64,000 bases of DNA, taken from an uncultured Candidatus Saccharibacteria bacterium (GTDB lineage Bacteria > Patescibacteriota > Doudnabacteria > UBA920). The stretch is taken from the NCBI GenBank assembly GCA_964490395.1, contig CAZBAS010000007.1, positions 7,208 through 71,207 of the forward strand, in the 5' to 3' direction. Position numbers and translations under genes: made by a program. This document shows, one piece after another, positions 11,857 to 43,849 of the stretch. Position 1 is the stretch's first letter. Each line of letters starts with the position of its first letter. Under the pieces are notes generated by a model. It ran no database searches and was not told where the DNA came from. It was given only the letters and a program-made list of their open reading frames with translations.

Positions 11857-11891
11857 AGGGCTTAAGAATATCTAATTTCCAAAGTCAGAAT

Positions 11892-11924: not shown

Positions 11925-12004
11925 TTTGCTAAAATTTGGCATTAGAAATTCGATATTTGTAGAGCGGGTTTGCCACATATCTACTGTCCCGGTATCATAT
12001 ATGC

Positions 12005-27611: not shown

Positions 27612-27876
27612 TGTTTTCCTCCTGAAAACATTTTGTAAAGTACCTACGCCATGCCGCGGCGCTCGGGTTCAATTCCTCACATTCTTCACCGACTAAACTA
27701 TAAAAAGAATTATTATGACGAAATGAGGCGAACGGTATGCATGTTTGAATAAATCATGCATGCATACCACCCGTCTCATCACTATTCAATTTTACATAAT
27801 ATTATGCCATGCATTATGGATTATGTCAATAGTATTGTGTAATAAAAAATGGCAAGAAAGAGTTACTATATGCAAA

Positions 27877-27910
27877 AGGGTAACAAAAAAGAGCAGACTA
27901 ACGGGCTGCT
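27877..27910 (-). terminator. Rho-independent terminator for the 27967-29094 gene (minus strand)
   Basis: The reverse complement reads GAGCAGCCCGTTAGTCTGCTC followed by TTTTTTGTT. Confidence 0.6.
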
Positions 27911-27966
27911 CCCATGTCCTTAAAGGACTCCGGTTAAATTGGCAATTCACAGGAAGCTAGAATAGT

Positions 27967-29094
27967 TTAGTGCAAGGGGCGTGGGGTAATGTAATCCTTA
28001 TCCCTACCCCCCGACATGTTGTAGAACCGCGACTTTACCCCAATGCTTGGTGTAATAGCTGCGAAATCTACTCCATGCGCTGCCCCGTAGACCATGGCTC
28101 CGTGCTTTAACCCATAGGTTTTGAGGTACCGTATGAATTTAGCTAGAGACACGTAGCTTCGCCATTCCACAACAAGACTGTCCTCTATGTCTTGTATGGA
28201 CTTGCCGTTTTCATTGAGACAGGCGTACTTGTGAATTGGGAAAACATTCTCGTGGAGCGGCGGGTCTTCCACCCCTGTTACTCGCCTGTTAAGGTCGCGA
28301 AGCTGCCACTGAAACGGGGCGTAGACCTGCACCTGTTTTTTGATCTTGTTATCGAACTTATCTCGTTCGGTGGGGTCGCTTAGGTTGTACAGACGACCTA
28401 AGGTGGCTATGTAAACGGGCATGCTTTCTTTCTCATCATACCCGCCTTCCATGCCGACTGCCTGAGGTGCAAGCTCCTCCAAACCCTTAAGGATCTTGGT
28501 GTGGCAGGTTGTTAGTTCTTGTATTTCTTTCTCGCTAGACTCGCCAAACGGCGACTCGTGAATCATGAGAAAGAAATCAATCGAAAGTCCTTCTGCCTCG
28601 GAAAGCGCGCTTGTTACTTCGCTCTTTTCGCGATCGTATTCTTTTCTGATTAGCCCAACACTGCTGCCGAACCGTTCATCGTTTCGATACTTCGCCAGGA
28701 GTGCTTCGATGTGGCTTGTAATCTTGTCGAGCCGATTTTTGGTGGCCTTGGTATCCACCTTAGATTCGACTACCAACGCAGCGCCGCTTGTGGTTGCGTT
28801 GATCGAAAGGGGCGGGGTTGATTTGGGGTTGTTCTTTTTTGCTATCACGGGCCTGCTCGAACCCTCTTCTCGCTTCCCTTTTAGGGGTACGAAATAGAGA
28901 AACAGGCAAGTTGTGATTCCCAGGAACATTGCTGTTCCTGAAACAATAAAGATAGTCCGTGAAGTATTTTTCTTTAACCGACGTTGCCGCCGGCTGGACT
29001 TCCTGCCCTTTCCAAAGAATGAGGGTAAGGAGAAAGAAAAGCTTACGCGACGGTTGCGTAACTGCCGACTGCGTCCAGATCTGTGAATTGCCAT
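27967..29094 (-). CDS. Hypothetical membrane-anchored protein (Arg-rich N-terminus, one TM helix, ~300-aa C-terminal domain); weak resemblance to the TraB/GumN/TIKI family
   Basis: A 375-aa product. It has FFLMIHESP and downstream E/H/R residues in a spacing that loosely recalls TraB-family motifs (I could not verify this). Its codon usage is GC3-enriched relative to the core genes. Confidence 0.45.
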   Translation of the reverse strand: MAIHRSGRSRQLRNRRVSFSFSLPSFFGKGRKSSRRQRRLKKNTSRTIFIVSGTAMFLGITTCLFLYFVPLKGKREEGSSRPVIAKKNNPKSTPPLSINATTSGAALVVESKVDTKATKNRLDKITSHIEALLAKYRNDERFGSSVGLIRKEYDREKSEVTSALSEAEGLSIDFFLMIHESPFGESSEKEIQELTTCHTKILKGLEELAPQAVGMEGGYDEKESMPVYIATLGRLYNLSDPTERDKFDNKIKKQVQVYAPFQWQLRDLNRRVTGVEDPPLHENVFPIHKYACLNENGKSIQDIEDSLVVEWRSYVSLAKFIRYLKTYGLKHGAMVYGAAHGVDFAAITPSIGVKSRFYNMSGGRDKDYITPRPLH

Positions 29095-29279
29095 TATGAA
29101 CCCTCCGATTCAGTGGTTTGGCCGGGTAAAATCCGGCTTTTCGTTTGTAATGTACTGTAACCTTGCTAAACGCATTATACGTATAATCATTATATAAGTC
29201 AATAGCTATATATATGCAATATGCTAAATTATCCTTTATATAAGCCATTATATGACACGATGTCTTTGAGCAAATACTA

Positions 29280-29309
29280 TTGACAAATACCGAAATAAAT
29301 GATATAATG
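29280..29309 (+). promoter_or_regulatory. Near-consensus sigma-70 promoter (TTGACA-N18-TATAAT) driving the 29512-32141 operon through a ~200-nt leader
   Basis: TTGACA lies at 29280-29285 and TATAAT at 29304-29309. The leader contains a long-range inverted repeat, GGCATGGCCTTTTTAA ... TTAAAAGGCCATGCG. Confidence 0.6.
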
Positions 29310-29511
29310 TTTTCACAGTACATTGACAACTGAGCTGGAAGTGGCAGGCATGGCCTTTTTAAGCCAAAGAGTGAAACACTATTTTCTCTGGTTTTAAAAG
29401 GCCATGCGGGCCGATACTTGGGAGTACGCACGCGCGGACTCCTAAATTCTTTGCTTCTTGTGACCGCATGGCCACGGAAGTTTAACTTGCAACTCAACCT
29501 GTGGAGGGTAT

Positions 29512-31077
29512 ATGCCAGTGAATCAAATTCAAATTAGCGATGAAACTCGAAAAGCGCAGGCGCGCATTAAACTCGATTTCATCCCCGTTACCTTTACTAC
29601 CGATCTTCAGAAACGCATTACTGCGTTAGTGGCAACGTTCGTTGCTGCTACCGGTATCGAACCGCTTTACAAGACCGCTGCGGGTTGGGCTGCGCAGATC
29701 TATGCTGGTTTAATCCAGCGTGTGCATCCTATCGTCGAAGAAGCGAAGTCAGAAGCCACGGAAGTGGTGGATGGTACGAGCTTTGGAGGCGAAGCCGCAG
29801 TTTACAGAAGCGCGGTTGAAAGCGCGGAAAAGAAGTACCGTGAAAAGGTCAAAAAGGCGTTTAAGAAGGCCTTGGGCAATGACCGCAGCAATTCCCGTAA
29901 GTTGACAGGTCTGAAGGCTGAAAGAACCGAACTCCTCGTTCGCATCAAAGATCAAGTGGTGCGCATGACTGGCGATGAGAATGCCCATATCCGGTCCGAG
30001 AGTAAAATCCTCGAATGGGTTATGAGGTCGGCGTTGCTTGGCTCCTTCTCTACCGTTGAATACTTGCTCGGCTTCGGCGCATATGCATTCTTGGGTAATG
30101 ACCAAATTGCCACCGGCTTTTCCGGCGGCACTGTGCTGGCCATGCTCATCTTGACTATTCTTGCAGGCGAATGTTTTAGCCGTATGTATGCTTATCGGAG
30201 CGCTCTGCGAACTCTCGCGGAGAATTATCCTGATGGCTACTACGACTACGATGACCGTAAGGTTATCATTGTTCGTCCGAGTGAGAAAGTCGAACTCATA
30301 GCGAAGTCTAGTTTACGGGGGCTGATCGGTCTTAGCGTTATTCTGCTCTTGATGCGTATTGTGGTCGCGTTTATGGACCATGAGACGGGGCCAATTGCCA
30401 TCGGCGGCGCACTCATTATGGCCGCGTTGAGCGGTGCATTTCTGCTTGTCGAACTTAAGATCGGCATGCAGTATGACGCCGACGCCTACCGTAAGTGGAA
30501 AGAGCTGAATGACCGCCTGGACGAAGTTGAAGACGGGATTGATGAAATCGAAAATCCGGATCCGGAAGCGCCGGAAGATACGACTGTACAGGATGAATTG
30601 ACCAAAACTTTGACTGTGGCACACGAAGAATATCTGGAAGTGGTCCGCAACCCTGCGGAAACGATTGAAAGGAAAATTCGTGTTGAAGCAGCAAAAGTGG
30701 AGTTCTTCCTGGCTGTGATTGATCGCGTTGCAGAAGCTGGAAAAATGATTGAGGACAAACTGGCTGAGTTGATGGTGTTAATTTGCGAAGCGGTTCTGGC
30801 CAGTAATGCTGGTCTGGATCGGGATGCGATGATACCGAAGCGCAGTCAAGTCCAAAAATTGTTAACCGAAGCAATTGGTGCCTCCTCGGCCTTCAGTGTT
30901 TCTGAAGCGTTGATCGAACGCATGCGGCAGTTCCAACCGCCCACCATTATTTCCCTTGGCTTGCCAGCCGCCATTACCGATTTTGCATTTGTTAATAGCG
31001 AAATCGAAATGGCTGTGCGAGCTGAACTCTTGAATGAAGACCTACAGCAGCCAGTCGCCCTGGCTGAGGACATCTAA
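29512..31077 (+). CDS. Orphan membrane protein (soluble N-terminal domain, four central TM helices, acidic helical C-terminal domain)
   Basis: A 521-aa product with no recognisable motif and an atypical codon signature (AAG, ATC, CCG and GCG preferred). Confidence 0.55.
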   Translation: MPVNQIQISDETRKAQARIKLDFIPVTFTTDLQKRITALVATFVAATGIEPLYKTAAGWAAQIYAGLIQRVHPIVEEAKSEATEVVDGTSFGGEAAVYRSAVESAEKKYREKVKKAFKKALGNDRSNSRKLTGLKAERTELLVRIKDQVVRMTGDENAHIRSESKILEWVMRSALLGSFSTVEYLLGFGAYAFLGNDQIATGFSGGTVLAMLILTILAGECFSRMYAYRSALRTLAENYPDGYYDYDDRKVIIVRPSEKVELIAKSSLRGLIGLSVILLLMRIVVAFMDHETGPIAIGGALIMAALSGAFLLVELKIGMQYDADAYRKWKELNDRLDEVEDGIDEIENPDPEAPEDTTVQDELTKTLTVAHEEYLEVVRNPAETIERKIRVEAAKVEFFLAVIDRVAEAGKMIEDKLAELMVLICEAVLASNAGLDRDAMIPKRSQVQKLLTEAIGASSAFSVSEALIERMRQFQPPTIISLGLPAAITDFAFVNSEIEMAVRAELLNEDLQQPVALAEDI

Positions 31078-31094
31078 GATAAGGAGAGCAAATC

Positions 31095-32141
31095 GTGAGA
31101 AACAGTAGACGTAGTAAACGCAGTGGAAAAGGTAATGGGCGATTGGTGTTACAAATCATCGCTGCGATCATGGGTTTATTGATCGTGGTTGGTGGTATCG
31201 GCTACATCGCTTATCGTCAAATCAAGAGCCATACTGATTATAAAGTTGCCAGTGACGAACAGATGATTGCCCGGGATGCACTCAGTGATGAACATCCCAC
31301 GATCCCATCTTTCTTCACTAAGCCTCTCGTCAAAAAGTTGTATCAAGGCGAAGGGTTTAAGGTGACCTTTGTAGTCAAACATGATCCAAATAATGGCTAT
31401 AAAGACTCAGAGGAAGTCTTTGAAATCCAACCCTGGGAGAAATACCAGGAAACGTTTGTCCGGGTTCGGAGGAACCAGGTGGACGAACAGATTAAGAAGT
31501 TTCCGGAGTTTGTTGAACGCTTTAACGAAGACCGGCCCCGAACCATCCAACTCTACCTCTGTGTCGACGACACAGAAGGGATCAGTACCGGCTTGAAGAA
31601 GCAGGTGACTGAAGAAGTTAAGAGTTGGGATATCGCGGCAAAACTGGCCAAGGGACACACGGTTGAAGTGATTGCGTGGCCACTTAGTGACACGGAATTC
31701 ACTCATAACCAGAAAGTAGTCCTGAAGCCAGACACTGACGATGTCGAGACGAAGCTGAAACCGCTATATACGTTTTTGTTCGGTGAAAAACCGGGCGACG
31801 TACAAGCGACAGCGACGTCCGACATTGCCGGCGGCATTAAGCGAATTGCCAGCGTAGCAGCGGAACATCCAGACCGTCAGTTTCTTTTTTTCGGCGACAG
31901 TCTTCAGAACCACAACGGCGTGCATTTTTACGGCGCTGAGGGAATGAAGATGCTTGAAGAGAAGAATTGGCCAAGTTTAGACAAAACGTTGTTTGACGAC
32001 AAGCTTCCCGCCCTTAAGGATGCCAAAATTGATTGGTTTCCACCACAGGTGGCGGCGAGCGAATCGGCATTGGTTCGTAAATCTTTGACGTATTGGGAAC
32101 ACGTCTTCGCCAAGGCCGGCGCAAAGGCCAAGATTCACTGA
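31095..32141 (+). CDS. Orphan protein with an N-terminal signal-anchor TM helix and a ~310-aa extracytoplasmic domain
   Basis: A 348-aa product starting 18 bp after the upstream gene (operonic) and followed by a terminator. Confidence 0.55.
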   Translation: MRNSRRSKRSGKGNGRLVLQIIAAIMGLLIVVGGIGYIAYRQIKSHTDYKVASDEQMIARDALSDEHPTIPSFFTKPLVKKLYQGEGFKVTFVVKHDPNNGYKDSEEVFEIQPWEKYQETFVRVRRNQVDEQIKKFPEFVERFNEDRPRTIQLYLCVDDTEGISTGLKKQVTEEVKSWDIAAKLAKGHTVEVIAWPLSDTEFTHNQKVVLKPDTDDVETKLKPLYTFLFGEKPGDVQATATSDIAGGIKRIASVAAEHPDRQFLFFGDSLQNHNGVHFYGAEGMKMLEEKNWPSLDKTLFDDKLPALKDAKIDWFPPQVAASESALVRKSLTYWEHVFAKAGAKAKIH

Positions 32142-32146
32142 TAGCA

Positions 32147-32211
32147 AGCGGCGGTAGTTGCAGAAGAGAAATTAAACACTCTTCTTGCGACTACTGCCGC
32201 TGTTTTTTTAT
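32147..32211 (+). terminator. Rho-independent terminator closing the 29512-32141 operon
   Basis: A long imperfect stem AGCGGCGGTAGTTGCAGAAGAG / CTCTTCTTGCGACTACTGCCGCT, followed by GTTTTTTTA. Confidence 0.65.
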
Positions 32212-32261
32212 TTGATAATGTATTTAAAAGCAGCCATGTTATATGGCTGCTTTAAAGTAAA

Positions 32262-35200
32262 TTATTTGAATATTTCTTCTTTTATGCGTTTAGCACGAGG
32301 GGATAGTCTACTTATTTGATTCACAAAGTCATCCAGGAAGGCCATATCTCCCTTGCCGGCATCCTTGGCCTGCTTGAGTGCTCTCAGCGCTGGTTCGTAC
32401 TCTTGATCGGATAGCTGCTTTAACATAACACCCTGTTCAGTTTTGCTTCCAACTACTTCTTTGCGATGCAGGCTTTGTGCGTTAGTAAGGACAGCTGTTT
32501 GTATGCCAGTGAACTCTCGGGGTGTTGGAAGGCGTCGCAAGGTTTGCTCTACTGTTTCATTTATTGGTAGTGGAACTTTCAGCGTATCCGGTTGGCGTAG
32601 GGGTTCGAGGCTAGCACGTTTTGTTTCCGTGTCTATGACAACTGTTTTAATGGCTTTGAGCCTGTCTGAGTAGTCCGTAAGTAGGAGTACTGCTTCGTCC
32701 ATCTCGTCTTCATTTTGTTCTAGGAACCGAGCATCTACTTCGCGTCCTTGAGTGGTAATGCGTAGTGTAAGGTCTGGTCGTATAGATGCCCTAAGCTCGC
32801 CATCCCATTTTTCAAATAGGTTTTCCGCCGGTGGCTTTACTTCTGGTGCAGCTGTCTGCTTAAGTGGTTCTAGTTCTTTTTCTATTTCTGCGCGAGAAGT
32901 GAGCTTGCCAGTGGGCACCCATAGTTCTGCTTTCCCAACGTCTGGGTCTAAATCCAAGCCAGTTTCTTTAGAGCCTACAACGAATACGACTTCAGTCACA
33001 CCGTTTAACAGTCTGGCGTTTTGCGCAACAATTAGTAGGTTTGCTTTTATAATTATTTCATCATTTACCGTCTGTTGCCCCACATCTGGTATGCCCAAAT
33101 TGCCAAATGATAGTTTCGGTAAACCGGGAATTTTGCCCCACTCGGCTAAAGCGCCTGCTTCTATTTGTGCAGCCTTTTCCTTTACCCCCATTTCTACTTC
33201 TTTTGTAAACGGGACCTCAACTATCTTAGCATCTGTTAGTTTGTAGTCAGTAGGGTTTTGGAAAATAACAATTTTGTTTACTCCGCCAGCGGTTTGGGCA
33301 AACTTCTCATATGGTGGTTGTAGGGGGATGTTATTTGTATATGCGTCTCCCTGTTTCCAGGTTTCCTGTGTTATAGACACACCTTTACCGTTGTTACGGT
33401 CCGGTCCCATGGGCATAGTCGTAAAAGCCTGCTCAGCTATCTTACGTATGAACTCAGGGTGCTCGTTCAGGTATTTGCTCAACTCTTCGTACGTACTTTT
33501 GTTCACGATAACTTCCGTGAAGAGCTCCTGCCCACCACGTGTACTGTAGTCTTGATAGGCGTGTTCGTTCTGCGCACCTGGAGCTGTTACAAAATAACCA
33601 ATACGGTATGCTACTTCTGCTCCTGCTTTTTGTTTATTATATTGGCTTAAAGGAGTGTTGCCCGCTACTTTTTCCAGTGTGATAAATTCATGCAGGCTTT
33701 TATCGTTGGCCGCTAGTTCGCGCAGTGGACTTACATATGCGATGGAGGGATAGCGCTTGGCATCTGCCCTATTTTCTCCGAATGTTCCCACGAACCCAGC
33801 CGAACCTTCGGGGTGATAGTGCTGGGGTAAGCTGGTATACACTAAGTTAGCCGCGTTTTCAGGCTTCGCGAGGAGCTCAAGCAGTCTCTGCTCTTTTGCT
33901 TCTTTGGTCTCAGCCTGTTCTGCTGCTGCCACTGCTGGTTGCTTGGCTTCCGGTGTCGTTGTATTTCCAGCTCCAAACACAGTATCCAAGTCTGCAGCAG
34001 TGATCTCTCGAGTTGCGGGGATAAATAGTGTACTCGCAAGACGAATAACAGAGGTTTCTTCAAAGTCTATGTTTATTGTGGAAATGGTGCTTATTTCTTT
34101 TCTGCCGCCCAGCTGACCAAGGTTTGCTTCTATAGTTGCAACATTGAGCGCGACTTGTGTGTAGTTATATTGATTTTTATTAGGGGTAGGATCACCCACT
34201 TTTTTATTTGCAATATATTCTTGGTATCCTTGTCCAAACGCCCACACTATATCTATTCCCGGGCGCGCCTGTTTCCATGTTTGCGTTATGCGGCCAGCAG
34301 CTGCCATGCCCACTCCGCTTTCCCGCATAAAATCTGGTATGGCATGTTCGGCCGCAGATTGGGCTGTCTCTGGTGGTTTCGATGCGGGAGGTACTGCTTG
34401 GTGTTTGGTAGGCGTTGATTGTGTGGTTGCCTTAGGAGAAGCTCCAGATATGATTTGCTCAAGAGCTTGTTCCTCAATGGCGTTTCTACAGGGGACAACG
34501 AGTGTATCTCCTTCTTCATGCAATGTTGCTCGCTCTTGCAGATCTAACTGAACCAGTCTGTACTTGCCTAGACCTGCTTTATTCTTTACAAGTAAGCCCA
34601 CGTTTATATCTATATCGCTTTCATGTTCAGCGACTAGCGCTAAATTATATACTCGCTCGTTTGGTAGTTTGCCTGCCGTAGCCTTGGCTGTTAACTCCGC
34701 ATATCCAGTAGTGTCATATTGCGTTTTAAGAGCGGCTGGCATGGTTTCAGTTTTCCATAACTCCACTACCCTTGAAACAATCATAGTTCCTTTGCCCGCC
34801 TCAGTAAGGTATTCGGTTACTTCTTTTTCGGGTGCGATATTTTTTTTACTAACTGGTTTGCTGGAGGGGGTGATTTTACTGCTCTTCTTTTTTGGTGCAG
34901 TCCCTTCTAACTCGGTGAGTATTTCTTCAGCTCGTTGTCTGCCGTTTTCATTTAGGCTTACCCGGTATATGAGGGCCTCGTTGGACGGTACTCTTTTCCA
35001 TCCCCATACCCTCCCCCAAGATTCACGGTTTTGTTCATCTATCCACTTCAAAAATTCCGCGCTGCTATTCCCCGGTTGCACTTCACGGTTCGCTCTGTCG
35101 TTCATTATATTTTCTGCCGCCCACATTGTTCTTTGGGGCTTAGGCATGCCTTCTACATCATATGGTTTTGCCAGGAGTGGGTTCCATTCAGGACGAGCTG

Positions 35201-35306
35201 CTTCCGTTTCGAGCTTGCTTTGTCTTCGGGTCTGTGGTGGTTTTTCGGGTTGTTGGTCTCTTTCTGGTTGCGCGGTAGGGTACCAATCGGCGCCTCTTCT
35301 TATCAT
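32262..35306 (-). CDS. Large (1014 aa) hydrophilic orphan protein with no TM helix, no signal peptide and no recognisable catalytic motif
   Basis: A single uninterrupted ORF with core-like AT-rich codon usage. It contains a Lys/Glu/Thr-rich linker (residues ~280-330) and a Pro-rich N-terminus. Confidence 0.6.
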   Translation of the reverse strand: MIRRGADWYPTAQPERDQQPEKPPQTRRQSKLETEAARPEWNPLLAKPYDVEGMPKPQRTMWAAENIMNDRANREVQPGNSSAEFLKWIDEQNRESWGRVWGWKRVPSNEALIYRVSLNENGRQRAEEILTELEGTAPKKKSSKITPSSKPVSKKNIAPEKEVTEYLTEAGKGTMIVSRVVELWKTETMPAALKTQYDTTGYAELTAKATAGKLPNERVYNLALVAEHESDIDINVGLLVKNKAGLGKYRLVQLDLQERATLHEEGDTLVVPCRNAIEEQALEQIISGASPKATTQSTPTKHQAVPPASKPPETAQSAAEHAIPDFMRESGVGMAAAGRITQTWKQARPGIDIVWAFGQGYQEYIANKKVGDPTPNKNQYNYTQVALNVATIEANLGQLGGRKEISTISTINIDFEETSVIRLASTLFIPATREITAADLDTVFGAGNTTTPEAKQPAVAAAEQAETKEAKEQRLLELLAKPENAANLVYTSLPQHYHPEGSAGFVGTFGENRADAKRYPSIAYVSPLRELAANDKSLHEFITLEKVAGNTPLSQYNKQKAGAEVAYRIGYFVTAPGAQNEHAYQDYSTRGGQELFTEVIVNKSTYEELSKYLNEHPEFIRKIAEQAFTTMPMGPDRNNGKGVSITQETWKQGDAYTNNIPLQPPYEKFAQTAGGVNKIVIFQNPTDYKLTDAKIVEVPFTKEVEMGVKEKAAQIEAGALAEWGKIPGLPKLSFGNLGIPDVGQQTVNDEIIIKANLLIVAQNARLLNGVTEVVFVVGSKETGLDLDPDVGKAELWVPTGKLTSRAEIEKELEPLKQTAAPEVKPPAENLFEKWDGELRASIRPDLTLRITTQGREVDARFLEQNEDEMDEAVLLLTDYSDRLKAIKTVVIDTETKRASLEPLRQPDTLKVPLPINETVEQTLRRLPTPREFTGIQTAVLTNAQSLHRKEVVGSKTEQGVMLKQLSDQEYEPALRALKQAKDAGKGDMAFLDDFVNQISRLSPRAKRIKEEIFK

Positions 35307-35381
35307 ATAAGTATCAAATTATTCACTAAAATCATTATAGCGGTTTGGAGGTGTTTGAACAAAATGTACCCCGATACCCTT

Positions 35382-37013
35382 TTAGAGGCCAACTTTGTAA
35401 ATTTTAAGCTCAGCGTTTTGATATATATTTTTTAAATAGTCGCGTTCTTCAAAAGCAGCGCTGGACCATGAAGAGACTTCGCTATCTATAATAAGGTAAT
35501 CTATGCCATTCATTTTGCAGAAAGTTTTGAGGGGATCGCTCTGGTTTGGCTCCGTGACTAGCACCCTTCTAAGCAACGTGTATTTAGCGTAATAAAATGC
35601 AGTTTGGTCTCCGTGGCCTATATATACTGTTTGTCCGGTTGTACCAGGGATTATATTTCCAAGGTTTGAACCAGTAGCAACTATGCTCCTAGACGGGGTG
35701 TTTGTTTTCAGCCAGTCTAAAGCTTCATGTTCTGAGGAGGGTATATAGTACGGCTGTGTATTTGTTTGGAAGGCCTGTACGTCTTGCCATGCAATACGGA
35801 GATTACCATATGAAAATAATAAAATAATGGCTATGGCAGTTGTGTACCGTAAATATGTGAATCTAATTTTTAAAATTATATCCCACAGTATATATCCAGC
35901 CATTATGGCAAGAGGAATGTGCAGCCCCAGAATTAGCTTTCTTTGGAACGTAATTTGTAGGGGTGCGTATACAAGCATGAGTAGCGCACCTGCCCAAAGA
36001 GCACAAAATAAAATATATTTGTTGCTAGTTTCGTGTTTAATCCAAGCAAAGAAAGCAAAGGGGAGTAGGGGCGCATATGTTTGTATGAGGGGTAAAAGTG
36101 GTGGCGCTGGCCGCGGAGGCTGCATGTTAAACCATAGGCCGAAAGCTTCGTTGTGGCTAATAACGTATCCTTGCCAGAGTATCGCCGGAAGGGTCAACAG
36201 AGTAAGGTGCATGAAATGTTTTATTGTCCCAAGATTTCGGTTGGAAAAGGCTTGGTATACAACGTACAATCCTAGTACGCTAAAGATAGAAATAATGTCA
36301 TATGGATGTACAAGGATAATCGCGTTACACAATAGTGCTTCTATGGCCAATCGTTTCTTAGAAAACGCGGTATCGTTTTTTAGGAATGATGCGTATAGTA
36401 GCAACATGAGTAGCATCGCGCTTATATTTAGCACTGACTCATAGAGCGACAAGAAAGTAACCGCTTCTGTCATCCATGTATCCAGGGAAACGTTTGAATG
36501 GGTGATCCAACCTAGACCAGACGAAGTTGCTACTAGGGCCCAGATAAACCATGATCGAGATGTTGTAAGGACGAACCTTTTTATAAATATATAGAGGGAA
36601 GTAAGAAATGCTGTTCCAAGAAGAATGCGGGCAATATTGTACCAAATAATATTTGGTAAAGATATGATTTTTGCTACAAGGCCTATTACTAAGAAAATAG
36701 GATGAAATAGTCGAGGCCCATTATTCTCCGTTGTATATAGTGGGGCGAATAATATGTGTCCTTGTCTCCCTTGCTCAATCCATGCCAGGTAACTATAAGT
36801 ATCTCCCTGGTTAATGCGGTGAACGCCTGTAAACGATCCAGGGTGTGAACGCATTGCGCCATATATATAGGGTAAGGAAATTATTACCATGGCTATTAAC
36901 GACGTTGTTACTAGCAAGATCGTACTCCTGTTTTTGGTGTATAGAGATGAGAACATGTGGTGATTATAACAAAAAAGAGCGGGTCCTTTACGCTGAGCTA
37001 TAAATAGCTTCAC
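35382..37013 (-). CDS. Polytopic membrane protein (at least 12 TM helices), possibly a GT-C-like glycosyltransferase, with a C-terminal soluble domain
   Basis: A 543-aa product whose hydrophobic helices span the first ~400 aa, followed by a C-terminal ~100-aa domain. It is not obviously related to the 17564 and 23439 paralogs. Confidence 0.5.
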   Translation of the reverse strand: MKLFIAQRKGPALFCYNHHMFSSLYTKNRSTILLVTTSLIAMVIISLPYIYGAMRSHPGSFTGVHRINQGDTYSYLAWIEQGRQGHILFAPLYTTENNGPRLFHPIFLVIGLVAKIISLPNIIWYNIARILLGTAFLTSLYIFIKRFVLTTSRSWFIWALVATSSGLGWITHSNVSLDTWMTEAVTFLSLYESVLNISAMLLMLLLYASFLKNDTAFSKKRLAIEALLCNAIILVHPYDIISIFSVLGLYVVYQAFSNRNLGTIKHFMHLTLLTLPAILWQGYVISHNEAFGLWFNMQPPRPAPPLLPLIQTYAPLLPFAFFAWIKHETSNKYILFCALWAGALLMLVYAPLQITFQRKLILGLHIPLAIMAGYILWDIILKIRFTYLRYTTAIAIILLFSYGNLRIAWQDVQAFQTNTQPYYIPSSEHEALDWLKTNTPSRSIVATGSNLGNIIPGTTGQTVYIGHGDQTAFYYAKYTLLRRVLVTEPNQSDPLKTFCKMNGIDYLIIDSEVSSWSSAAFEERDYLKNIYQNAELKIYKVGL

Positions 37014-37076
37014 GTAAATTTCTCGCTCTCAGTTTTCCCTCCCTGCTCCTCCTGCAGGGTTGTTTGGTCGCGCACG

Positions 37077-38432
37077 TTATTTGTGCACGATCCGGATTGT
37101 CACATGGAATCCGCCAGAGTTGTTTCCGTCGGAATATCCATGCAGTGATTCAATGATGCGGAGCGTTGGCACGCCCGCCTCTTTGGCCGATTGATTAAAC
37201 CGCGACCCAACAAAGTACCGGCTTGTGTCTTTGTTGGTGCCGATCCACATCTCCAAGCCTCCGATGTGGGCGGTGAATGGGCTGTCTACGCTGGGGTCGC
37301 GGTAGGCTGACCTCTCGCCTTCGGGGCTCACAGGACCGCGGCCAATGTTGGCCGTGCCTGTTGCCTCAATGCTGAGTTCGTCGCCTACTTTAAGCTTCAG
37401 CTCTTCGCCGCTCGCGGTGACCAGCTTGACGCCTTCCGCAACAACGGGGACGTCGGCTGACCATGATCCATCAGCGTTTTTGGTGACTTTGGCTTGTACA
37501 TCTGGAAGCGTGCTGCCACGTCCAGAAGTGGAAGAGGATTCCTTTGTCCAGCTAAACCAGCCATGGCGATAGGCGTACAACCCAGCCAAGACCAGCCCGA
37601 GTAACATTGCCGCTATTACCACGTGGTTTCGCGTCAACTTAAAACTGAACTTCAACCCTTTTCCAGCGCGTTCGCCCATCATGTAGCGGATCAGGAACCT
37701 GGCCGCATACAGGATGATTGCCAAGCCAATGAGGACTCGGAGCCACCAATATGGGTTTGTGTAGTTTGCTGCCCGTTCCCACTCGTCCCAGTGGTATATC
37801 CAACCAAACAACTTGCCGTTGGTTATAGCATCAACCACCAGGAAAATTGTCAGCAGGACCTGGCTGCCCAGCGCCAAGCGTTGCAGTGCCTTTAGCCAGA
37901 AGCCATCCGCTTTGAATGCAATCGCCATTATGCCGGCAATAAGCGAGGCCAAGATGATGACTGCAAACTTCATTGGGTGTTCATGCAGCGGTGTGAGCGC
38001 TGTGATCTCCAAGAGAAGTCCGAAGAGTGCGAACAGGGCGATAAACGTCGTTATGAACGAGTCCCTCTGCTCCACGGTTACCCACGGATCAGATGCCTTT
38101 TGTTCACCCGGCGCGATTTCACGAACGGCGTCCACGCCTGTGCGGAGAGCTTTCTCTGCAGCCGTGAAAAGCGCTGCAAGAAAACCTAACTGCAAGGTCG
38201 CCGCATATGCACCCAGCATGATCATTATTGAAGCGCCAATCATCACGAAGTAACCAAAGCTGTGAGAGTACCAGTCTGAGGCCATCCCTCCCAGATAGAC
38301 GGCAAAAAAGAAAGCCGGCCATCCGTAGAGGAAGATCATGAGGCGGCCAAGGTGGTACTGTAGTTCGCGCTGGGCATCCAGGACTCTTTCCTGTGTCCAA
38401 AAGAAGAAGAATTGTAGGTAGTCTTTCGGCAT
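37077..38432 (-). CDS. Orphan membrane protein (~8 TM helices) with a C-terminal ~170-aa beta-rich extracytoplasmic domain
   Basis: A 451-aa product with GC3-enriched codon usage. It is the last gene of a three-gene minus-strand operon, 40001 to 37077. Confidence 0.5.
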   Translation of the reverse strand: MPKDYLQFFFFWTQERVLDAQRELQYHLGRLMIFLYGWPAFFFAVYLGGMASDWYSHSFGYFVMIGASIMIMLGAYAATLQLGFLAALFTAAEKALRTGVDAVREIAPGEQKASDPWVTVEQRDSFITTFIALFALFGLLLEITALTPLHEHPMKFAVIILASLIAGIMAIAFKADGFWLKALQRLALGSQVLLTIFLVVDAITNGKLFGWIYHWDEWERAANYTNPYWWLRVLIGLAIILYAARFLIRYMMGERAGKGLKFSFKLTRNHVVIAAMLLGLVLAGLYAYRHGWFSWTKESSSTSGRGSTLPDVQAKVTKNADGSWSADVPVVAEGVKLVTASGEELKLKVGDELSIEATGTANIGRGPVSPEGERSAYRDPSVDSPFTAHIGGLEMWIGTNKDTSRYFVGSRFNQSAKEAGVPTLRIIESLHGYSDGNNSGGFHVTIRIVHK

Positions 38433-38441
38433 GTTTCCCCT

Positions 38442-39230
38442 TTAGGACCCTTGAATAAGGGCCCGGATGATGAGCACAATAATTGAGCCGAACCCGATTC
38501 CGAGAACGACCCCCCAGTAGAGGATTCTGAACCACAGCGGCGCTGTGGGCGCAGAGAGCCTCTGGCCAGGAAGTAAGGTTTCGGGTTGTAGGTGGAAGAG
38601 CTGAGCCAGGGTTGGCCGGTTGCGAAGACGATCCAGTTTTGCGGCAATGCGGGCCTCGCGGACCACATTCGCATCGCGGACTGCAGTCTCGCCGAATTCG
38701 CGGACTGCATCCAAGATACGTTCTGACATCGTGAGGTCAGCACAACCGGTACTGGCCAGTAAGGCCAAGCGTTCGGTGTCGTCCTCACAAAGTAGAAGTG
38801 CAGCAATTTCGTCGCTGCGGTGATTTTCGTCGGCGATACGGAAGTGGCGTTTCAGATACTTTTTCCTCATCCGGGTCACGGCTTCATCCGTGCTCGCGAG
38901 AAAGAAAATGGTATCATTTAACCGTGCCACGCCCGCAGGGCCATCAAGGTCCTCATGCAAACGTTCCAGTTGCTTACGCACCTGGCCCAAATCACGCAGA
39001 AACAATGCTCCTTCAGCAGTCATGCCCAATTTATCATCTTGCATGGTCATGATGCGCTGCGCTGCTCGAACATCGCCCTCTTCCAGTTTCTTCTGGGCAG
39101 CACCCACGACGGCTTCAGCGCCTTTGCCTTCCGCAAAGAGTGCATGAACCGCTGTGTTCGCCGTAAATTCGGACATGAAGTGTTTGGCCACGTCCCAGCC
39201 CTCATCAATAATCTTTTGAACTGTCGGCAT
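38442..39230 (-). CDS. Orphan helical protein with a single C-terminal TM helix (tail-anchored topology)
   Basis: A 262-aa product with the C-terminus LWFRILYWGVVLGIGFGSIIVLIIRALIQGS. It ends 9 bp upstream of the next gene. Confidence 0.5.
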   Translation of the reverse strand: MPTVQKIIDEGWDVAKHFMSEFTANTAVHALFAEGKGAEAVVGAAQKKLEEGDVRAAQRIMTMQDDKLGMTAEGALFLRDLGQVRKQLERLHEDLDGPAGVARLNDTIFFLASTDEAVTRMRKKYLKRHFRIADENHRSDEIAALLLCEDDTERLALLASTGCADLTMSERILDAVREFGETAVRDANVVREARIAAKLDRLRNRPTLAQLFHLQPETLLPGQRLSAPTAPLWFRILYWGVVLGIGFGSIIVLIIRALIQGS

Positions 39231-39239
39231 AGCTCTCTC

Positions 39240-40001
39240 CTATGAGTACTTGAGGTCAAGGATGACCGGTTGATCGTTGGGGTGAAGCACAGTAAGCTGT
39301 GTTTCGTTCACCCTAAAGAATTTTAAGCGGATAGTTTCAATGCCCGCTGCTGGTGTAAATTTCCAACTCGCGACCGCGAATTTCTCTTGGGTCGCTGGCG
39401 GGGTTGGTGGTACACGCGTGATGGGTGTGCCGTCGGCTGCCTGCATTACGAACTTGGCCCCACAACTAATTTCGACTTCCTCGGGGTTTTGGTCACCAGC
39501 GGCATTCGCCGTTTTAATGGTGAGTAAGAACCAGGGGTTGCCGCCACTAATTGCGGTTTTGCCAGTAACTGTAACGCGCGACTTCTTGGACGTTGCCACG
39601 CTCACAGTCCCTGCGGGTGCAGGCGGAGCCTTTGGGATTTCGAGCGCTTTCGATGTAACGTTGTCTACGTCCTCCCGCGCGCAGATGTGCGTGAAAGGAG
39701 CGCCAGACAAGTTAACGGTGACAGAACCCCAGCCCCGGTTGTTAGTGCTGATAGTCACTGGAGCATCCGGCGTGGTGCCTTTCGTAAGCTGTATGTCAAA
39801 CGCGTCAGCAGTCTCATCGTTCCCCAGATAGAGTTTGACATTTTTCACGGCAAGCCCTTTATTTCCTTTCCTTGTTTTTATTCTCAAGGTTAATTTAGTG
39901 GGGTCCTTGCCGATAATCTCAAAATCAATCGCCTCTCGGCTCTGCTGGGCCTGTTGACCAGGTTTCTTTCCGTTGGGCTGTTTGCCTTTATCGTCGGCCA
40001 T
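39240..40001 (-). CDS. Orphan protein, predicted beta-sandwich-like, with a Lys/Gln-rich N-terminus
   Basis: A 253-aa product. It is the first gene of the minus-strand operon; an AT-rich promoter region lies upstream at 40002-40600. Confidence 0.5.
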   Translation of the reverse strand: MADDKGKQPNGKKPGQQAQQSREAIDFEIIGKDPTKLTLRIKTRKGNKGLAVKNVKLYLGNDETADAFDIQLTKGTTPDAPVTISTNNRGWGSVTVNLSGAPFTHICAREDVDNVTSKALEIPKAPPAPAGTVSVATSKKSRVTVTGKTAISGGNPWFLLTIKTANAAGDQNPEEVEISCGAKFVMQAADGTPITRVPPTPPATQEKFAVASWKFTPAAGIETIRLKFFRVNETQLTVLHPNDQPVILDLKYS

Positions 40002-40262
40002 AGCTTGCTTCTCCTTTCAAGAGAAATTGTTTACGGTTTACGCAAGCTATGCCAACAGGCATTTGCTGCGCGCTGGTATATGATTTATAACTATTTAGTT
40101 GTAAAAGAGCGCGAAACACGGACAATTGTCCGCTGGTAGGTGGATTAAGAATTATCCTACCAGATATATGGCTTACATAAGCCATAAGTCTCATAGGGCA
40201 ATTCGTGTATTCATTTGAAACAACATTATAGTATATTATTGCAAATATGTCAATATATAGGT

Positions 40263-40300
40263 ATACATAAACTCTGCTTAATTAAGCAGAGTTTATGTAT
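40263..40300. promoter_or_regulatory. 38-bp perfect palindrome (ATACATAAACTCTGCTTAA|TTAAGCAGAGTTTATGTAT) in the divergent region between the orphan operon and the pilin-like array
   Basis: It is exactly self-complementary over 19+19 bp and no U-tract follows. A second 9+9 palindrome, TATGGCTTA-CAT-AAGCCATA, sits at ~40166-40186. Confidence 0.6.
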
Positions 40301-40599
40301 ATTATTGTGTTGGTGTATGCGCCAAAATAGAGCATAAATAAGCCTTGCATAGACTTAGCATTGTATCTTCCTTGTCTTGGTCTGGCTCTGCTCGGCTCAC
40401 TGTTCCGTTTCGACGTGCTATCTATATATAGCCATAAGTATGAACCATTATTTTCACCTCCCAGATTTCATATGGGTCCTACAGAACTAATCCCATATCA
40501 TTTCTACAATTTGTCTTTAAGTTTCGAGAGTCATTTACTGTACGCATGGAATATGTTCTGGTATAATTTTTTTAAAGGCAGTTTACTTTAAGAAACCAA

Positions 40600-41073
40600 A
40601 TGCTTAAAAAAATAAATTGGAAATTTGTTCGGTATCTGCTCGCATCGGTTGTGGTCGCTGTTGCGTTGTATGCTCCTATGGCGCATGCCGCAATAGTTAA
40701 TTGCGGCAATCAAGACGGGGGAGATGCAAAAGATGGGTGTAAGTTTAGTGACCTGTTTACCAGCGCAACAAATTTAATAAATTATTTTTTGAGTGGCGCT
40801 GCTGTTGTGGCGGTAGGTGGAGTAGTATATGGTGGTTTTCTCATGGTTACGTCTGCGGGCAATGCAAGCAAACAGGGTGCTGGTAAGAAAGCAGTTACGA
40901 ATTCGCTCATTGGCCTCGGGGTTATACTTGTGTCGTTTCTGCTCATAAAGAGTGTGTTTGTAATTCTTGGCTTTAAAGGTGGCGCAGATCCTTTGCAGAA
41001 CCCAACGCAATTTATAAATGGCCAGAGTGGAAACTTAATAGACTCTGGTGTGCCGAGCGGCGGAGGGAAATAA
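40600..41073 (+). CDS. Pilin-like array member 1: signal peptide, a short Cys-containing ectodomain, and the C-terminal VirB2/TrbC-like two-helix domain
   Basis: The C-terminus is VVAVGGVVYGGFLMVTSAGNASKQGAGKKAVTNSLIGLGVILVSFLLI (hydrophobic helix, polar loop TSAGN..K.G.K, hydrophobic helix). Confidence 0.6.
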   Translation: MLKKINWKFVRYLLASVVVAVALYAPMAHAAIVNCGNQDGGDAKDGCKFSDLFTSATNLINYFLSGAAVVAVGGVVYGGFLMVTSAGNASKQGAGKKAVTNSLIGLGVILVSFLLIKSVFVILGFKGGADPLQNPTQFINGQSGNLIDSGVPSGGGK

Positions 41074-41115
41074 GTTCGTTAATGCATTTTCTAAAAATAA
41101 ACTAAACAAGCTATC

Positions 41116-41967
41116 ATGACATTTAAAAAATTATCTATTATTAGTAACTCCATAGCCTTGCTCGTAAGCCTTGCTACAGTGGCATCTGTATGGAGCGCAC
41201 CTGCATTTGCCGCTGGGTGTGATCCAGATATATATTTTTCAATTACCGACCCAGTAACTGGCAACATTGTTACGCAAGCTCCTCAAAATGGTAAAGTTAC
41301 GTTTTATGTAAAACTTACTCCGAAGGGTGACTGCTCGACCACGGTAATAAACGATGTAGTAATAAATCAGCGTCTTACCAATGGAATCACCTTTTTGGCA
41401 AATTTTCCTATTTCTGATAAAAACGGATTGCGACGAGGGGTTGTTGAATCTAAATATACCCAGGGCGTAGATGGGATCCTCGACACCACGACGGGTAAGC
41501 CAGTACAAGTTGGTGGGAAGTTGTCGCTTGAAGGGGCCGTCAAATTAGAGGGTGAAGATAAATACCGTAATTCAAGTCCCACGCCACTTGCTGCGGTTGC
41601 TGCTGTTCCTGGCGGAGGTGGTGGAGATGTGAATGCGCCAAACGTAAACACCCCTGGTGGAAACGTAAACACCCCCGGTGGCGATCCTAGTACTGTAGGC
41701 ACTATTGGTACCATCTCAAACCCTATTGGCTATGAGTCTTTGGGTGCGCTTGTGGTGGCCATTATCCGTTTTCTACTTACTATGATTGGTGGTCTTGCCG
41801 TGCTGTTCATTATTATAGGTGCGGTGCGCATGGTTACCTCTCAAGGTAATGAAAAGGCCGTTACTGCTGGTAAGCAAACTGTTACCTGGGCAGTCATAGG
41901 TCTTATTACTGCACTCATGGCGTTCTCGCTCATTAGTTTGGTCCAGAGTTTAATAGGGCGTAAGTAG
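41116..41967 (+). CDS. Pilin-like array member 2: signal peptide, a beta-rich ectodomain with NVNTPGG repeats, and the conserved C-terminal domain
   Basis: The C-terminus is LLTMIGGLAVLFIIIGAVRMVTSQGNEKAVTAGKQTVTWAVIGLITALMAF. Confidence 0.6.
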   Translation: MTFKKLSIISNSIALLVSLATVASVWSAPAFAAGCDPDIYFSITDPVTGNIVTQAPQNGKVTFYVKLTPKGDCSTTVINDVVINQRLTNGITFLANFPISDKNGLRRGVVESKYTQGVDGILDTTTGKPVQVGGKLSLEGAVKLEGEDKYRNSSPTPLAAVAAVPGGGGGDVNAPNVNTPGGNVNTPGGDPSTVGTIGTISNPIGYESLGALVVAIIRFLLTMIGGLAVLFIIIGAVRMVTSQGNEKAVTAGKQTVTWAVIGLITALMAFSLISLVQSLIGRK

Positions 41968-41997
41968 AAGCGACACTAATCAACGAATTTCACACGA

Positions 41998-42744
41998 ATG
42001 ACACGAATAATAAAATTCAACCATACACTACGTGCGTTTCCACTTTTTGTTTTTGTTGCTGGTTTAGTTGTGGCGATGTGGTTTACCGGTACAGCCGTGG
42101 CGCAGACAGGTAATCCGTATGCATGTCCTACCCATCCACAAATTCCGACTGCTACCCGAAACGGTACTTGTGTACAAGCATTACAGTGGTTGCTCAATAG
42201 TAAAATACCAACGCCTGCTCTAGAAGAGAATGGCGACTTTGATACTGCTACGGAAGACAAACTTACGTTGTATCAGAAAGGTGCTGGTCTAAAATGTACC
42301 GACGGTATAGCTGGGCCAGAAACATGGAACTCACTTATTCCCGGTTTGAATCAAACAGGGGGGTGCGCTGGTGGAGGAGCAACCACCACTCCTTCCGCGA
42401 CAAACACAACTACGGGTGGAGTTTCTGCAGGCTGTAGTAAGATAGAGCAAAACTTTACTGAGTTTGGTGGCGGCACACCAGGTCCGCTTGCCAACAATTG
42501 CTATACTCCGGGTGAAGGAGTGAATAAAGTTATCAAAATAGCGTTTACGTTGGTTGGCATACTCACTGTTCTCTTTATAGTCATTGGTGGGTTTAGGTAT
42601 ATGACTTCTGCTGGTGATGAGAAGCGTGCAGGGAGTGGCAAGAAAACAATTCAGTGGGCGCTCATTGGTTTGGTGTTGGTGTTGTTTGCTTATGCGATTG
42701 TTACTATCTCCACACGACTCGCAACTACCAGTCAACTTTTCTAG
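41998..42744 (+). CDS. Pilin-like array member 3: signal peptide, a peptidoglycan-binding (PG_binding_1-like) domain, a Thr/Gly linker, and the conserved C-terminal domain
   Basis: The PGBD-like stretch is VQALQWLLNSKIPTPALEENGDFDTATEDKLTLYQKGAGLKCTDGIAGPETWNSL. The C-terminus is LVGILTVLFIVIGGFRYMTSAGDEKRAGSGKKTIQWALIGLVLVLFAYAIV. Confidence 0.6.
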   Translation: MTRIIKFNHTLRAFPLFVFVAGLVVAMWFTGTAVAQTGNPYACPTHPQIPTATRNGTCVQALQWLLNSKIPTPALEENGDFDTATEDKLTLYQKGAGLKCTDGIAGPETWNSLIPGLNQTGGCAGGGATTTPSATNTTTGGVSAGCSKIEQNFTEFGGGTPGPLANNCYTPGEGVNKVIKIAFTLVGILTVLFIVIGGFRYMTSAGDEKRAGSGKKTIQWALIGLVLVLFAYAIVTISTRLATTSQLF

Positions 42745-42859
42745 CGCGCAAAAAAATTAAAATATTCTACCTCCCTTAAAATGTGATATAATAATTATGT
42801 AAAAATAATCCTCTAGAGTTTAAAGCTCCTAGAATAAAAGGAGAGGGGGTGAAAGTAAA

Positions 42860-43267
42860 TTGAAACAAATGATGAAAAAAATAAATTGGTTGGGCGTTGT
42901 CCCAATAGTCGCAGTTGTAGTATTGATGGGTATCTCCATTATCGCACCAAGCTTTGCTCATGCAAGTCAAATTCCTGATCCAGGTTTGTGCACCAAGGTA
43001 AATGGACTCAACTGTACTAACTACACATTGAATGGTCTTATTATCCGTGTTATCAACTGGATATTGGCTATTACATTGGCAGTAGATGTATTGTTCATGA
43101 TCATTGGTGGTTTCCTGTACATTACTTCTGCAGGTAACGAAGATCGTGCAAAGAAGGGAAGGACTACCGTTATCAATGCTATCATTGGTTTGGTAATTAT
43201 CATCCTCGCATACGTCATTGCAAACGTAGTTTCTAGCTTCTTCTCAACTGAAAACTTCACCGCATAA
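42860..43267 (+). CDS. Pilin-like array member 4 (TTG start), with a short ectodomain
   Basis: It starts at TTG at 42860, preceded by the RBS AGGAGAGGGGGTG. The C-terminus is LAITLAVDVLFMIIGGFLYITSAGNEDRAKKGRTTVINAIIGLVIIILAYVIAN. Confidence 0.6.
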   Translation: MKQMMKKINWLGVVPIVAVVVLMGISIIAPSFAHASQIPDPGLCTKVNGLNCTNYTLNGLIIRVINWILAITLAVDVLFMIIGGFLYITSAGNEDRAKKGRTTVINAIIGLVIIILAYVIANVVSSFFSTENFTA

Positions 43268-43432
43268 ATAAAATTCTCCGTACTGCGTCGTGTTTTTCTA
43301 CTCATTTCTGTGAGCACGGCTGCAGCCACATGACGCAGTGCGGATGAATATATATTGCAAGTTGCAAATTGTAGATTGCATAGGTGTGAACCTTTCAATC
43401 TACAATGTGAAATTTACAATCGGAACCTGCTC

Positions 43433-43843: not shown

Positions 43844-43849
43844 AAATGT

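Follow-up and report, generated by a model that had tools for sequence, protein, structure and literature searches.

Gene content of the region

This report concerns eight long open reading frames (ORFs) in a 64-kb stretch of DNA (the window, i.e. the whole stretch that was analysed) from contig CAZBAS010000007.1 of an uncultured Candidatus Saccharibacteria bacterium. The genome is of the Candidate Phyla Radiation (CPR)/Patescibacteria type, with a GC content of ~45%. An earlier reading made from the letters alone (the sequence-only reading) had flagged six of these genes, here named A1–A3 and B1–B3, as horizontally acquired blocks of orphan membrane proteins that flank the pair C1 and C2. The genes, and the promoter-like site of A1, are:

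27967–29094, minus strand: A1, long ORF, 375 aa
29174–29202, minus strand: A1 promoter-like site, TTGACT-N17-TATAAT, 11/12 matches
29512–31077, plus strand: A2, long ORF, 521 aa
31095–32141, plus strand: A3, long ORF, 348 aa
32262–35306, minus strand: C1, long ORF, 1014 aa
35382–37013, minus strand: C2, long ORF, 543 aa
37077–38432, minus strand: B3, long ORF, 451 aa
38442–39230, minus strand: B2, long ORF, 262 aa
39240–40001, minus strand: B1, long ORF, 253 aa

The first three genes had been taken for one plus-strand operon (27967–32141); A1, however, is encoded on the minus strand, divergently from A2–A3 and behind its own promoter (29202–29174). No family in Pfam, PADLOC, PHROGs or NCBIfam matched any of the eight proteins, which occur in the public collection on one NCBI contig and on a small number of metagenomic fragments that are almost identical. 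Among 5.8 billion protein clusters, word-based searches returned self-matches only for A1 and A2, PDB sequence searches with A1, A3, B1 and a C2 profile gave no match, and neither did a C2-anchored scan of species-representative genome contigs. By the measure of family libraries the label 'orphan' was therefore apt, and for A1 it still is. It no longer applies to A2, to A3 or to the C-terminal domain of B3, and five of the six flagged proteins have orthologues in a related contig. Nor are all six without a recognisable domain, given the vWA fold and many relatives of A3 and the predicted LecA-like lectin domain of B3 described below.

A2 and A3 form a conserved pair

An exhaustive HMMER search of 1.84 billion representatives (a library clustered at 50%) retrieved 66 full-length relatives of A3, 330–430 aa in length, so that A3 belongs to a real protein family; viral contigs scanned with this family contained no relatives. 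A3 consists of a basic N-terminal tail, one transmembrane (TM) helix (residues 17–40), an alpha/beta N-domain (~53–145) and a von Willebrand factor A (vWA)-fold domain (~150–348), and is of type II topology. The N-terminal TM helix is present in 54 of 55 aligned family members; since it is single and preceded by the basic tail, it predicts an extracytoplasmic position for the vWA domain.

An AlphaFold2 model of A3 computed from the family alignment (predicted local distance difference test, pLDDT, 92.8) shows the Rossmann-like alpha/beta fold typical of vWA domains, and Foldseek aligned it to the vWA domains of CLCA1, Rpn10, factor B, NorD, BatA, BatB and CMG2 in the PDB. Conserved residues of A3 map to the three loops that form the metal ion-dependent adhesion site (MIDAS) in vWA domains and make up a variant, MIDAS-like motif. 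In the window protein these loops read D158-x-T160-x-G162 … S242 … D268-x-x-Q271-N272, the family consensus at the second and third being S-S and D-G-x-E-N. Across the 55 members, conservation is complete for D158, T/S160 and S/T242 (each 55/55) and high for D268 (54/55), G162 (52/55), E271 and N272 (49/55 each) and S243 (46/55), with T246 found in 28/55.

A2 comprises a helical N-domain of ~170 aa, two TM hairpins (~172–225 and 262–319) and an acidic helical C-domain of ~200 aa; no Pfam family fits it. The outer loops of both hairpins are very short, and topology prediction accordingly turns nearly the whole protein (~400 non-membrane residues) towards the cytoplasm.

Loci carrying A3 relatives came from two Candidatus Doudnabacteria metagenome-assembled genomes, one Saccharibacteria metagenome-assembled genome, metagenomes and the contigs of individual relatives. 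In 10/10 contigs that extend far enough upstream, the window included, the gene immediately preceding A3 on the same strand is an A2 homologue, while the genes farther out are unrelated between loci (locus L010 has tRNA synthetases and SmpB, L004 has FtsA, and L011 has metabolic genes). This constancy amid unrelated surroundings identifies A2–A3 as a conserved two-gene module. Judged by gene content and predicted topology, it appears to be an uncharacterised two-gene envelope cassette distributed across CPR lineages, from Doudnabacteria to Saccharibacteria. Our literature search found no description of the cassette or of the leader RNA that precedes it.

As vWA domains are known components of conflict and defence systems (literature cited in PMC13622651), A3 might be thought to belong to a system of the MoxR–vWA or vWA-ternary type. 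We consider this highly improbable: PADLOC gave no match, neither the region nor the nine other cassette loci encode a MoxR AAA+ ATPase or a DUF58, kinase, phosphatase or effector domain, and the vWA domain is predicted on the outer side of the membrane.

A consensus promoter and a structured leader RNA precede A2

The A2–A3 unit is delimited by the following elements:

29280–29308, plus strand: A2–A3 promoter, TTGACA-N17-TGATATAAT, sigma-70 consensus with extended –10 TG
29309–29511, plus strand: A2–A3 leader RNA, core 29343–29480, fold z = –4.3 versus shuffled sequences
32148–32209, plus strand: A2–A3 intrinsic terminator, ~21-bp GC-rich stem followed by T7
32215–32265, minus strand: probable C1 terminator, a hairpin at the 3′ end of this gene, which is convergent with A3

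With its promoter, leader, two genes and terminator together, unit A is a compact, self-contained expression cassette. The textbook TTGACA…TATAAT promoter noticed earlier is real, with a spacer of 17 rather than 18 nt, and is one of only three promoters in the 64-kb window to match the consensus at 12/12 positions. For comparison we used L009, a 69.8-kb contig that carries the closest A3 relative, P0017 (~45–48% identical). Its A2 promoter has identical hexamers (8194–8222), and a 20-bp hairpin and T tract follow its A3 gene at the same position (11073–11120). Near-consensus promoters of the TTGACAAA type also stand before A2 in L003, L004 and L010.

The presence of a ~200-nt leader with a long stem was likewise borne out. 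RNAalifold folds it into a long hairpin, P1 (29350–29405, 16–18 bp), and a stem, P2 (CG-GGCC/GGCC-A-CG), enclosing the hairpin P3 (GGGAGTACGC-ACGC-GCGGACTCC). Alternatively, GGCCATGCGG in the 3′ half of P1 (29400–29409) can form 10 bp with CCGCATGGCC (29465–29474), and the last of these pairs covaries, GGCCATGCGG/CCGCATGGCC in the window corresponding to GGCCATGCGT/ACGCATGGCC in L009. In both genomes the 3′ arm of P3 appears to complement the Shine-Dalgarno region, through sequences that differ between the two.

Between the window and the 21-kb L009 locus, the leader is the sole conserved non-coding segment detected by blastn: it shares ~70–75% of its nucleotides with the L009 leader (8223–8412), while the A2 proteins are only 31% identical. 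Eight to ten base pairs are retained through changes on both sides, and conserved nucleotides also occupy unpaired stretches (GGCCGAUAC). A covariance model built from these two sequences located a third copy in the Doudnabacteria locus L003 (302–404; 25 bits, E = 3.6e-4), exactly ahead of its A2 homologue; there the distal stem of P1 and P3 differ in sequence and the unpaired GGCCGA(A/U)AC box is retained. Sequence and structure are thus conserved, with covariation, upstream of homologous genes in three genomes. A search of 4227 Rfam families gave no match beyond generic hairpin noise. We regard the leader as a candidate new cis-regulatory RNA, with limited statistical support from three genomes; the regulated expression surmised in the sequence-only reading gains support from its conservation in L009, the compensatory pairs and the L003 copy.

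A leader-peptide reading was rejected, as L009 does not share the small ORFs found in the window's leader. In two other loci, a beta-rich ORF of ~100 aa lies between promoter and A2, i.e. at the position of the leader (L005 5731–6036 and L011 8059–8355), and may be a third cassette component in those lineages.

The B operon and a predicted LecA-like lectin domain

Unit B is preceded by three elements:

40225–40253, minus strand: B unit promoter, TTGACA-N17-TATAAT, 12/12 sigma-70 consensus
40002–40224, minus strand: B1–B2–B3 leader, fold z = –5.2
40262–40301, no strand assigned: perfect 40-nt palindrome, unique in the window

A 12/12 promoter also stands upstream of B1 in L009, beyond which the B leader has no sequence conservation with that contig. 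The perfect palindrome reported earlier is indeed unique in the window, though 40 rather than 38 nt long. It lies in the intergenic region between divergent genes, with its start 9 bp ahead of the B promoter's –35 hexamer, and may be an operator for some regulator; L009 lacks it. The third 12/12 promoter of the window (53194–53222) lies before a gene for a 1270-aa protein (53400–57212) with F5/8 type C and Ig-like domains. F5/8 type C domains are galactose-binding-like, and with this gene all three perfect promoters drive genes for putative surface proteins.

The topologies described in the sequence-only reading hold roughly for the six proteins, except that B3 has seven TM helices instead of eight, with its N-terminus inside and its C-terminal domain outside according to hydropathy, the helices of the model and the positive-inside rule. 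In a word-based search, the C-terminal ~130 residues of B3 (domain ~313–451, nt 37080–37496) were 53% and 48% identical to domains of two unrelated proteins, P0001 and P0002. One of them is a ToxR-like winged helix-turn-helix membrane protein; the other, P0002, has a genuine match to Pfam PA-IL, but in its second domain. Both domains (L001 8592–8978; L002 8253–8594) lie in regions rich in mobile elements.

A profile of the three sequences matched the lectin PllA (5odu; E = 0.004), and the Pfam PA-IL model did not match the B3 domain. AlphaFold2 modelled the domain at pLDDT ~75–84, with two loops below 50, as a beta-sandwich of the LecA type. The top eight Foldseek matches in the PDB were EclA-N, LecA/PA-IL and PllA (E = 6e-6 to 1.3e-4, TM-score 0.68–0.75, 24–26% identity), and the domain carries a GNNSG motif. 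On the strength of the model, we assign the B3 C-terminal domain a predicted PA-IL/LecA-like lectin fold. The L009 orthologue of B3 (27% identical over the whole protein) also ends in a LecA-like pattern, far more divergent than the domains above; the lectin domain of the window's B3 may thus have been exchanged with a foreign homologue, which suggests lateral exchange at the level of the domain.

B2 is helical with a single C-terminal TM anchor (241–259). Its residues 76–173 resemble the C-terminal half of ribosomal protein uS2 weakly but consistently (E = 0.0016 for the best PDB match), probably by chance. B1 is beta-rich and has neither a TM helix nor a signal peptide; its L009 orthologue has an additional cold-shock-like N-terminal domain with weak Pfam support.

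Synteny, codon usage and the question of foreign origin

On the left, the region adjoins the PBP1A gene; on the right follow six T4SS_pilin (PF18895) paralogues and then tRNA-Leu and FtsH, with ChlI, LspA and further housekeeping genes farther out. In keeping with the earlier remark that no integrase, transposase or tRNA marks the borders, a tRNA scan of the borders found none, and the flanking genes encode no integrase or transposase domains; no flanking or direct repeats were found either.

The order and orientation A2-A3-C1-C2-B3-B2-B1 are the same in L009 as in the window. Orthologues there are 31% (A2), ~45–48% (A3), 25–31% (C1), 27% (C2), 32% (TM part of B3), 32–36% (B2) and 30–34% (B1) identical, while flanking proteins reach 70.5% (ChlI), 62% (NTP-transferase), 60% (solute-binding protein) and 62.5% (PBP1A). 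The cluster would therefore seem to be evolving about twice as fast as the housekeeping genes. Synteny extends over the whole 20 kb around the region, housekeeping genes included. In L009, PBP1A is found at the opposite end of the cluster, and there is an additional GT2 glycosyltransferase gene (13192–13923) that overlaps the C2 orthologue and has no counterpart in the window cluster. Because this gene order is common to two well-diverged genomes, the cluster was inherited from their common ancestor.

The compositional deviation that had suggested foreign origin is itself real. The six flagged genes have GC contents at third codon positions (GC3) of 0.533–0.635 (z = 2.3–4.4); the 43 remaining ORFs of the window average 0.420, with an sd of 0.049 and a maximum of 0.542. 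Synonymous choice moves to C/G-ending codons, as seen in the codon fractions of the six genes versus the rest: ATC 0.46 vs 0.15, GTC 0.26 vs 0.11, GGC 0.48 vs 0.28, TTC 0.53 vs 0.29 and AAG 0.50 vs 0.37, with ATA falling to 0.11 from 0.37. A leave-one-out codon-fit score gave per-gene z values of –1.6 to –3.9. Ribosomal-protein genes in the window fit native codon usage best (z about +2), so that expression-linked bias is not the cause of the shift. C1 and C2 have the native composition ascribed to them before (GC3 0.40 and 0.39).

A similar GC3 mosaic is found in L009, where A2 (0.63), A3 (0.63) and B3 (0.66) exceed the background of 0.45–0.55, C1 stands at 0.43, and B1 and B2 (0.53–0.54) are not clearly raised. 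Elsewhere, A2/A3 values compare with those of neighbouring genes as 0.76/0.71 vs 0.32–0.39 in L011, 0.72/0.68 vs 0.46–0.51 in L010, 0.56/0.64 vs 0.32 in L004 and 0.62/0.66 vs 0.55 in L016; in L003, A2 is GC3-rich relative to its neighbours and A3 less so. The raised GC3 is thus a trait of these genes, seen again in their orthologues, and not the mark of a recent import. Candidate causes are recurrent exchange of the cassette between lineages, GC-biased gene conversion where surface genes recombine frequently, and selection acting on the mRNA.

These data bear on the proposal that the two GC3-rich blocks are foreign operons recently acquired from a donor of higher GC content. Besides the codon deviation, several observations speak for it: in several other genomes the cassette occurs in unrelated surroundings and greatly exceeds its neighbours in GC3, which fits long-term movement between CPR lineages; the lectin domain of B3 is 48–53% identical to domains on contigs rich in mobile elements and aligns poorly with that of the L009 orthologue; and A1 has no homologue at all. 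However, five of the six genes, along with C1 and C2, are syntenic in L009 at 25–48% identity, which largely refutes recent transfer and dates any acquisition to before the divergence of the two genomes. Synonymous sites are saturated at that divergence, so that a recent, unameliorated import cannot explain the GC3 of the window genes. Of the features that define a genomic island, atypical composition is present; absence from a related genome is not, and neither is a border integrase, transposase, tRNA or repeat, nor were there relatives on viral contigs. We therefore judge foreign operons of recent origin unlikely. For five of the six genes the earlier claim of horizontal acquisition, taken as recent, is left without support, and recent acquisition is possible for A1 alone.

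A1 has an Arg-rich N-terminal tail, one TM helix (~48–70) and an ectodomain of ~300 aa, as judged by hydropathy; the GC3 of its gene is 0.56. Only near-identical copies were found among the 5.8 billion protein clusters, no homologue was present in L009 or the other loci fetched, and neither families nor the PDB gave a match. It is the sole true orphan among the six and lies outside the conserved cluster. The absence of A1 from L009, together with the position of PBP1A on the cluster's other side there, puts A1 at a rearrangement junction. Resemblance of its ectodomain to TraB/TIKI proteins (motifs IHES…GMEGG…WR…GAAHG) was considered and dropped, with no Pfam match even at E <= 10.

On balance, and with moderate confidence, we favour the view that the region is a native, vertically inherited and fast-evolving envelope neighbourhood of a CPR genome that comprises separate transcription units, not a set of foreign islands.

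Apart from these genes, the window encodes two paralogous ~12-TM proteins (17564–19111 and 23439–25064; 31% identical) without family assignment, homologues of which adjoin A2 in L009 and lie near the cassette in L003.

C1, C2 and a possible glycan operon

C1 has no TM helix and matches no family. Its L009 orthologue has 611 aa, 400 fewer than C1, and an internal repeat is apparent in that residues ~25–294 and ~159–297 of C1 map to consecutive segments of the orthologue. C1 may have a weak promoter of its own. C2 spans the membrane ~12 times and ends in a soluble domain. It is probably co-transcribed with the B unit, since the 63 nt that separate it from B3 contain a hairpin and no U tract.

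This arrangement raises the possibility that B1-B2-B3-C2, perhaps with C1, is an operon for the biogenesis of surface glycans or glycoproteins, in which C2 would act as a GT-C-type glycosyltransferase and B3 would recognise the cell's own glycan. C2 is suspected to be of the GT-C type because of its architecture and the GT2 gene that overlaps its orthologue in the same L009 operon; the lack of a terminator in the B3–C2 gap and the lectin domain of B3 would fit as well. But the GT-C suggestion comes from architecture, C2 having no Pfam or PDB sequence match, and the window cluster has no GT2 gene. We hold a glycan operon to be improbable.

Are the units linked?

A different possibility is that there is no system at all: the genes would be unrelated lineage-specific envelope genes, with A2–A3 the sole functional pair and the raised GC3 a by-product of, e.g., GC-biased gene conversion. 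Since the whole 20 kb, housekeeping genes included, is syntenic with L009, shared gene order carries little functional weight, and a single functional system is not demonstrated by it. Moreover, the two units have separate promoters and terminators, and the cassette occurs in L010, L011 and L004 without any C or B homologue. Co-occurrence of the six flagged genes in other genomes, which the sequence-only reading had proposed to check, is accordingly partial: five of six are found in L009 and A2–A3 elsewhere, while A1 is absent throughout. The 'undescribed envelope system' suggested there likewise survives in part, as the conserved and uncharacterised A2–A3 cassette, whereas the seven-gene arrangement is common to one fairly close relative only.

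Against a complete lack of connection stands the layout of L005, a distant Doudnabacteria locus. Here the A2–A3 pair lies a few kb from a four-gene cluster (11143–14946) that encodes a beta-rich protein of 516 aa with a cold-shock-like N-terminus, a B2-like helical protein of 216 aa, a multi-TM protein and another that combines TM helices with a beta domain. The cluster adjoins a T4SS-pilin array with FtsH close by, a layout like that of the window. The 216-aa protein, at the position analogous to B2, matches it in hhalign (E = 7.8e-5), and the cold-shock-like N-terminus is shared with B1 of L009; homology between B1 and the 516-aa protein was not significant. Based on the B2 match, the cold-shock-like N-termini and the gene layout, the cluster may represent a remote counterpart of the B operon. 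We think it rather doubtful that the units are wholly unconnected, yet this alternative overlaps heavily with our preferred reading of a native envelope neighbourhood and differs only in denying a link between the units.

In the window itself, the T4SS_pilin array is a set of six paralogous genes (40600–44722), one of which (41998–42744) adds a peptidoglycan-binding domain. Such arrays likewise occur near the A2–A3 pair in the Doudnabacteria locus L005/L007.

Proposed functions

Within the native envelope neighbourhood that we favour, the vWA domain of A3, displayed outside the cell, would bind an external ligand in a metal-dependent manner, either a protein or a glycan, on the surface of a host or of the cell itself. 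Binding would be coupled through the membrane helices to A2, acting as a cytoplasmic scaffold. The leader RNA would gate A2–A3 expression by switching between P1 plus P2 and the alternative long-range pairing. B1 (cytoplasmic and beta-rich), the tail-anchored B2 and the 7-TM B3 could form a carbohydrate-recognising membrane complex with the lectin domain outside, made from a transcript that would run from 40253 to 37077 and probably read on into C2. A CPR episymbiont would most plausibly use both modules to attach to or sense a partner cell, or structures of its own surface.

Several observations weigh against this interpretation. With respect to A3, the motif D-x-T-x-G departs from the canonical D-x-S-x-S in having Gly for the second Ser; the family's S and T at positions 243 and 246 are replaced by D and G in the window protein; and no above-threshold match to the Pfam VWA models was obtained, sub-threshold matches to VWA_2 being found in 3/55 relatives (best E = 0.0065). 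Contact between A2 and A3 is suggested by gene adjacency alone. The leader is known from two close sequences and one distant one, and the covariance model did not find its motif at the cassette loci L004, L005, L010 and L011. GC3 enrichment of the cassette is not universal, being nil in L005 and reversed in L017. The TM part of the B3 model has a pLDDT below 50. Finally, synteny with L009 does not prove that A, B, C1 and C2 work together, and none of the proposed functions can draw on a characterised homologue.

A further-reaching version would make A2–A3 an undescribed CPR-wide envelope module that circulates between lineages, with GC3 as its trace, has acquired a riboswitch-like leader in one clade and, with the B operon, forms part of episymbiont host attachment. 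We offer this as speculation and would not expect all of it to hold.

A large part of bacterial diversity belongs to the CPR/Patescibacteria, many of which are host-attached by means of attachment and sensing molecules that are mostly unknown. In this setting, a block of hypothetical proteins has been turned into three testable objects: a vWA protein with its obligate membrane partner, a membrane protein predicted to display a lectin, and a leader RNA. The region also calls for caution, in that a clear codon-usage anomaly is heritable here and common to orthologues in a diverged genome, and so is no evidence of recent transfer. These genes stay rich in GC3 in AT-leaning genomes.

Comparison with known systems

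The A2–A3 leader resembles riboswitches and attenuators in being a long 5′ UTR behind a consensus promoter, with conserved unpaired nucleotides, stems that show compensatory changes, and alternative pairings that exclude each other, of which one could reach the Shine-Dalgarno region. It differs from them in belonging to no Rfam family and in being represented by three examples only.

Among vWA adhesins and receptors (the PilB module of S. sanguinis, GBS104, Mfa5, integrin I-domains and CMG2), A3 stands apart in several ways. It has neither a pilin fusion nor a sortase signal; it carries the D-x-T-x-G motif and an additional N-terminal alpha/beta subdomain, and matches no Pfam VWA model above threshold; and it is always paired with a mostly cytoplasmic 4-TM protein that has no counterpart in those systems. 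BatA and BatB of Bacteroides aerotolerance and the MoxR–vWA systems share with A3 a TM-anchored bacterial vWA domain, and BatA and BatB are among its fold matches. Unlike them, A3 has no MoxR ATPase, DUF58, TPR protein (BatC) or other Bat gene nearby, and has another partner.

The B3 domain resembles the PA-IL/LecA family (LecA of P. aeruginosa, PllA of Photorhabdus and the N-domain of EclA from Enterobacter) in its predicted fold and in the pattern GD..I.A.G…G.L…(I/V)G…(D)GNNSG.F.V.I. The known lectins are soluble tetramers, whereas the B3 domain is fused to a 7-TM protein. Set beside these systems, the region does not represent a new kind of system; it combines known modules, a vWA domain and a predicted lectin domain, with a candidate new regulatory RNA.

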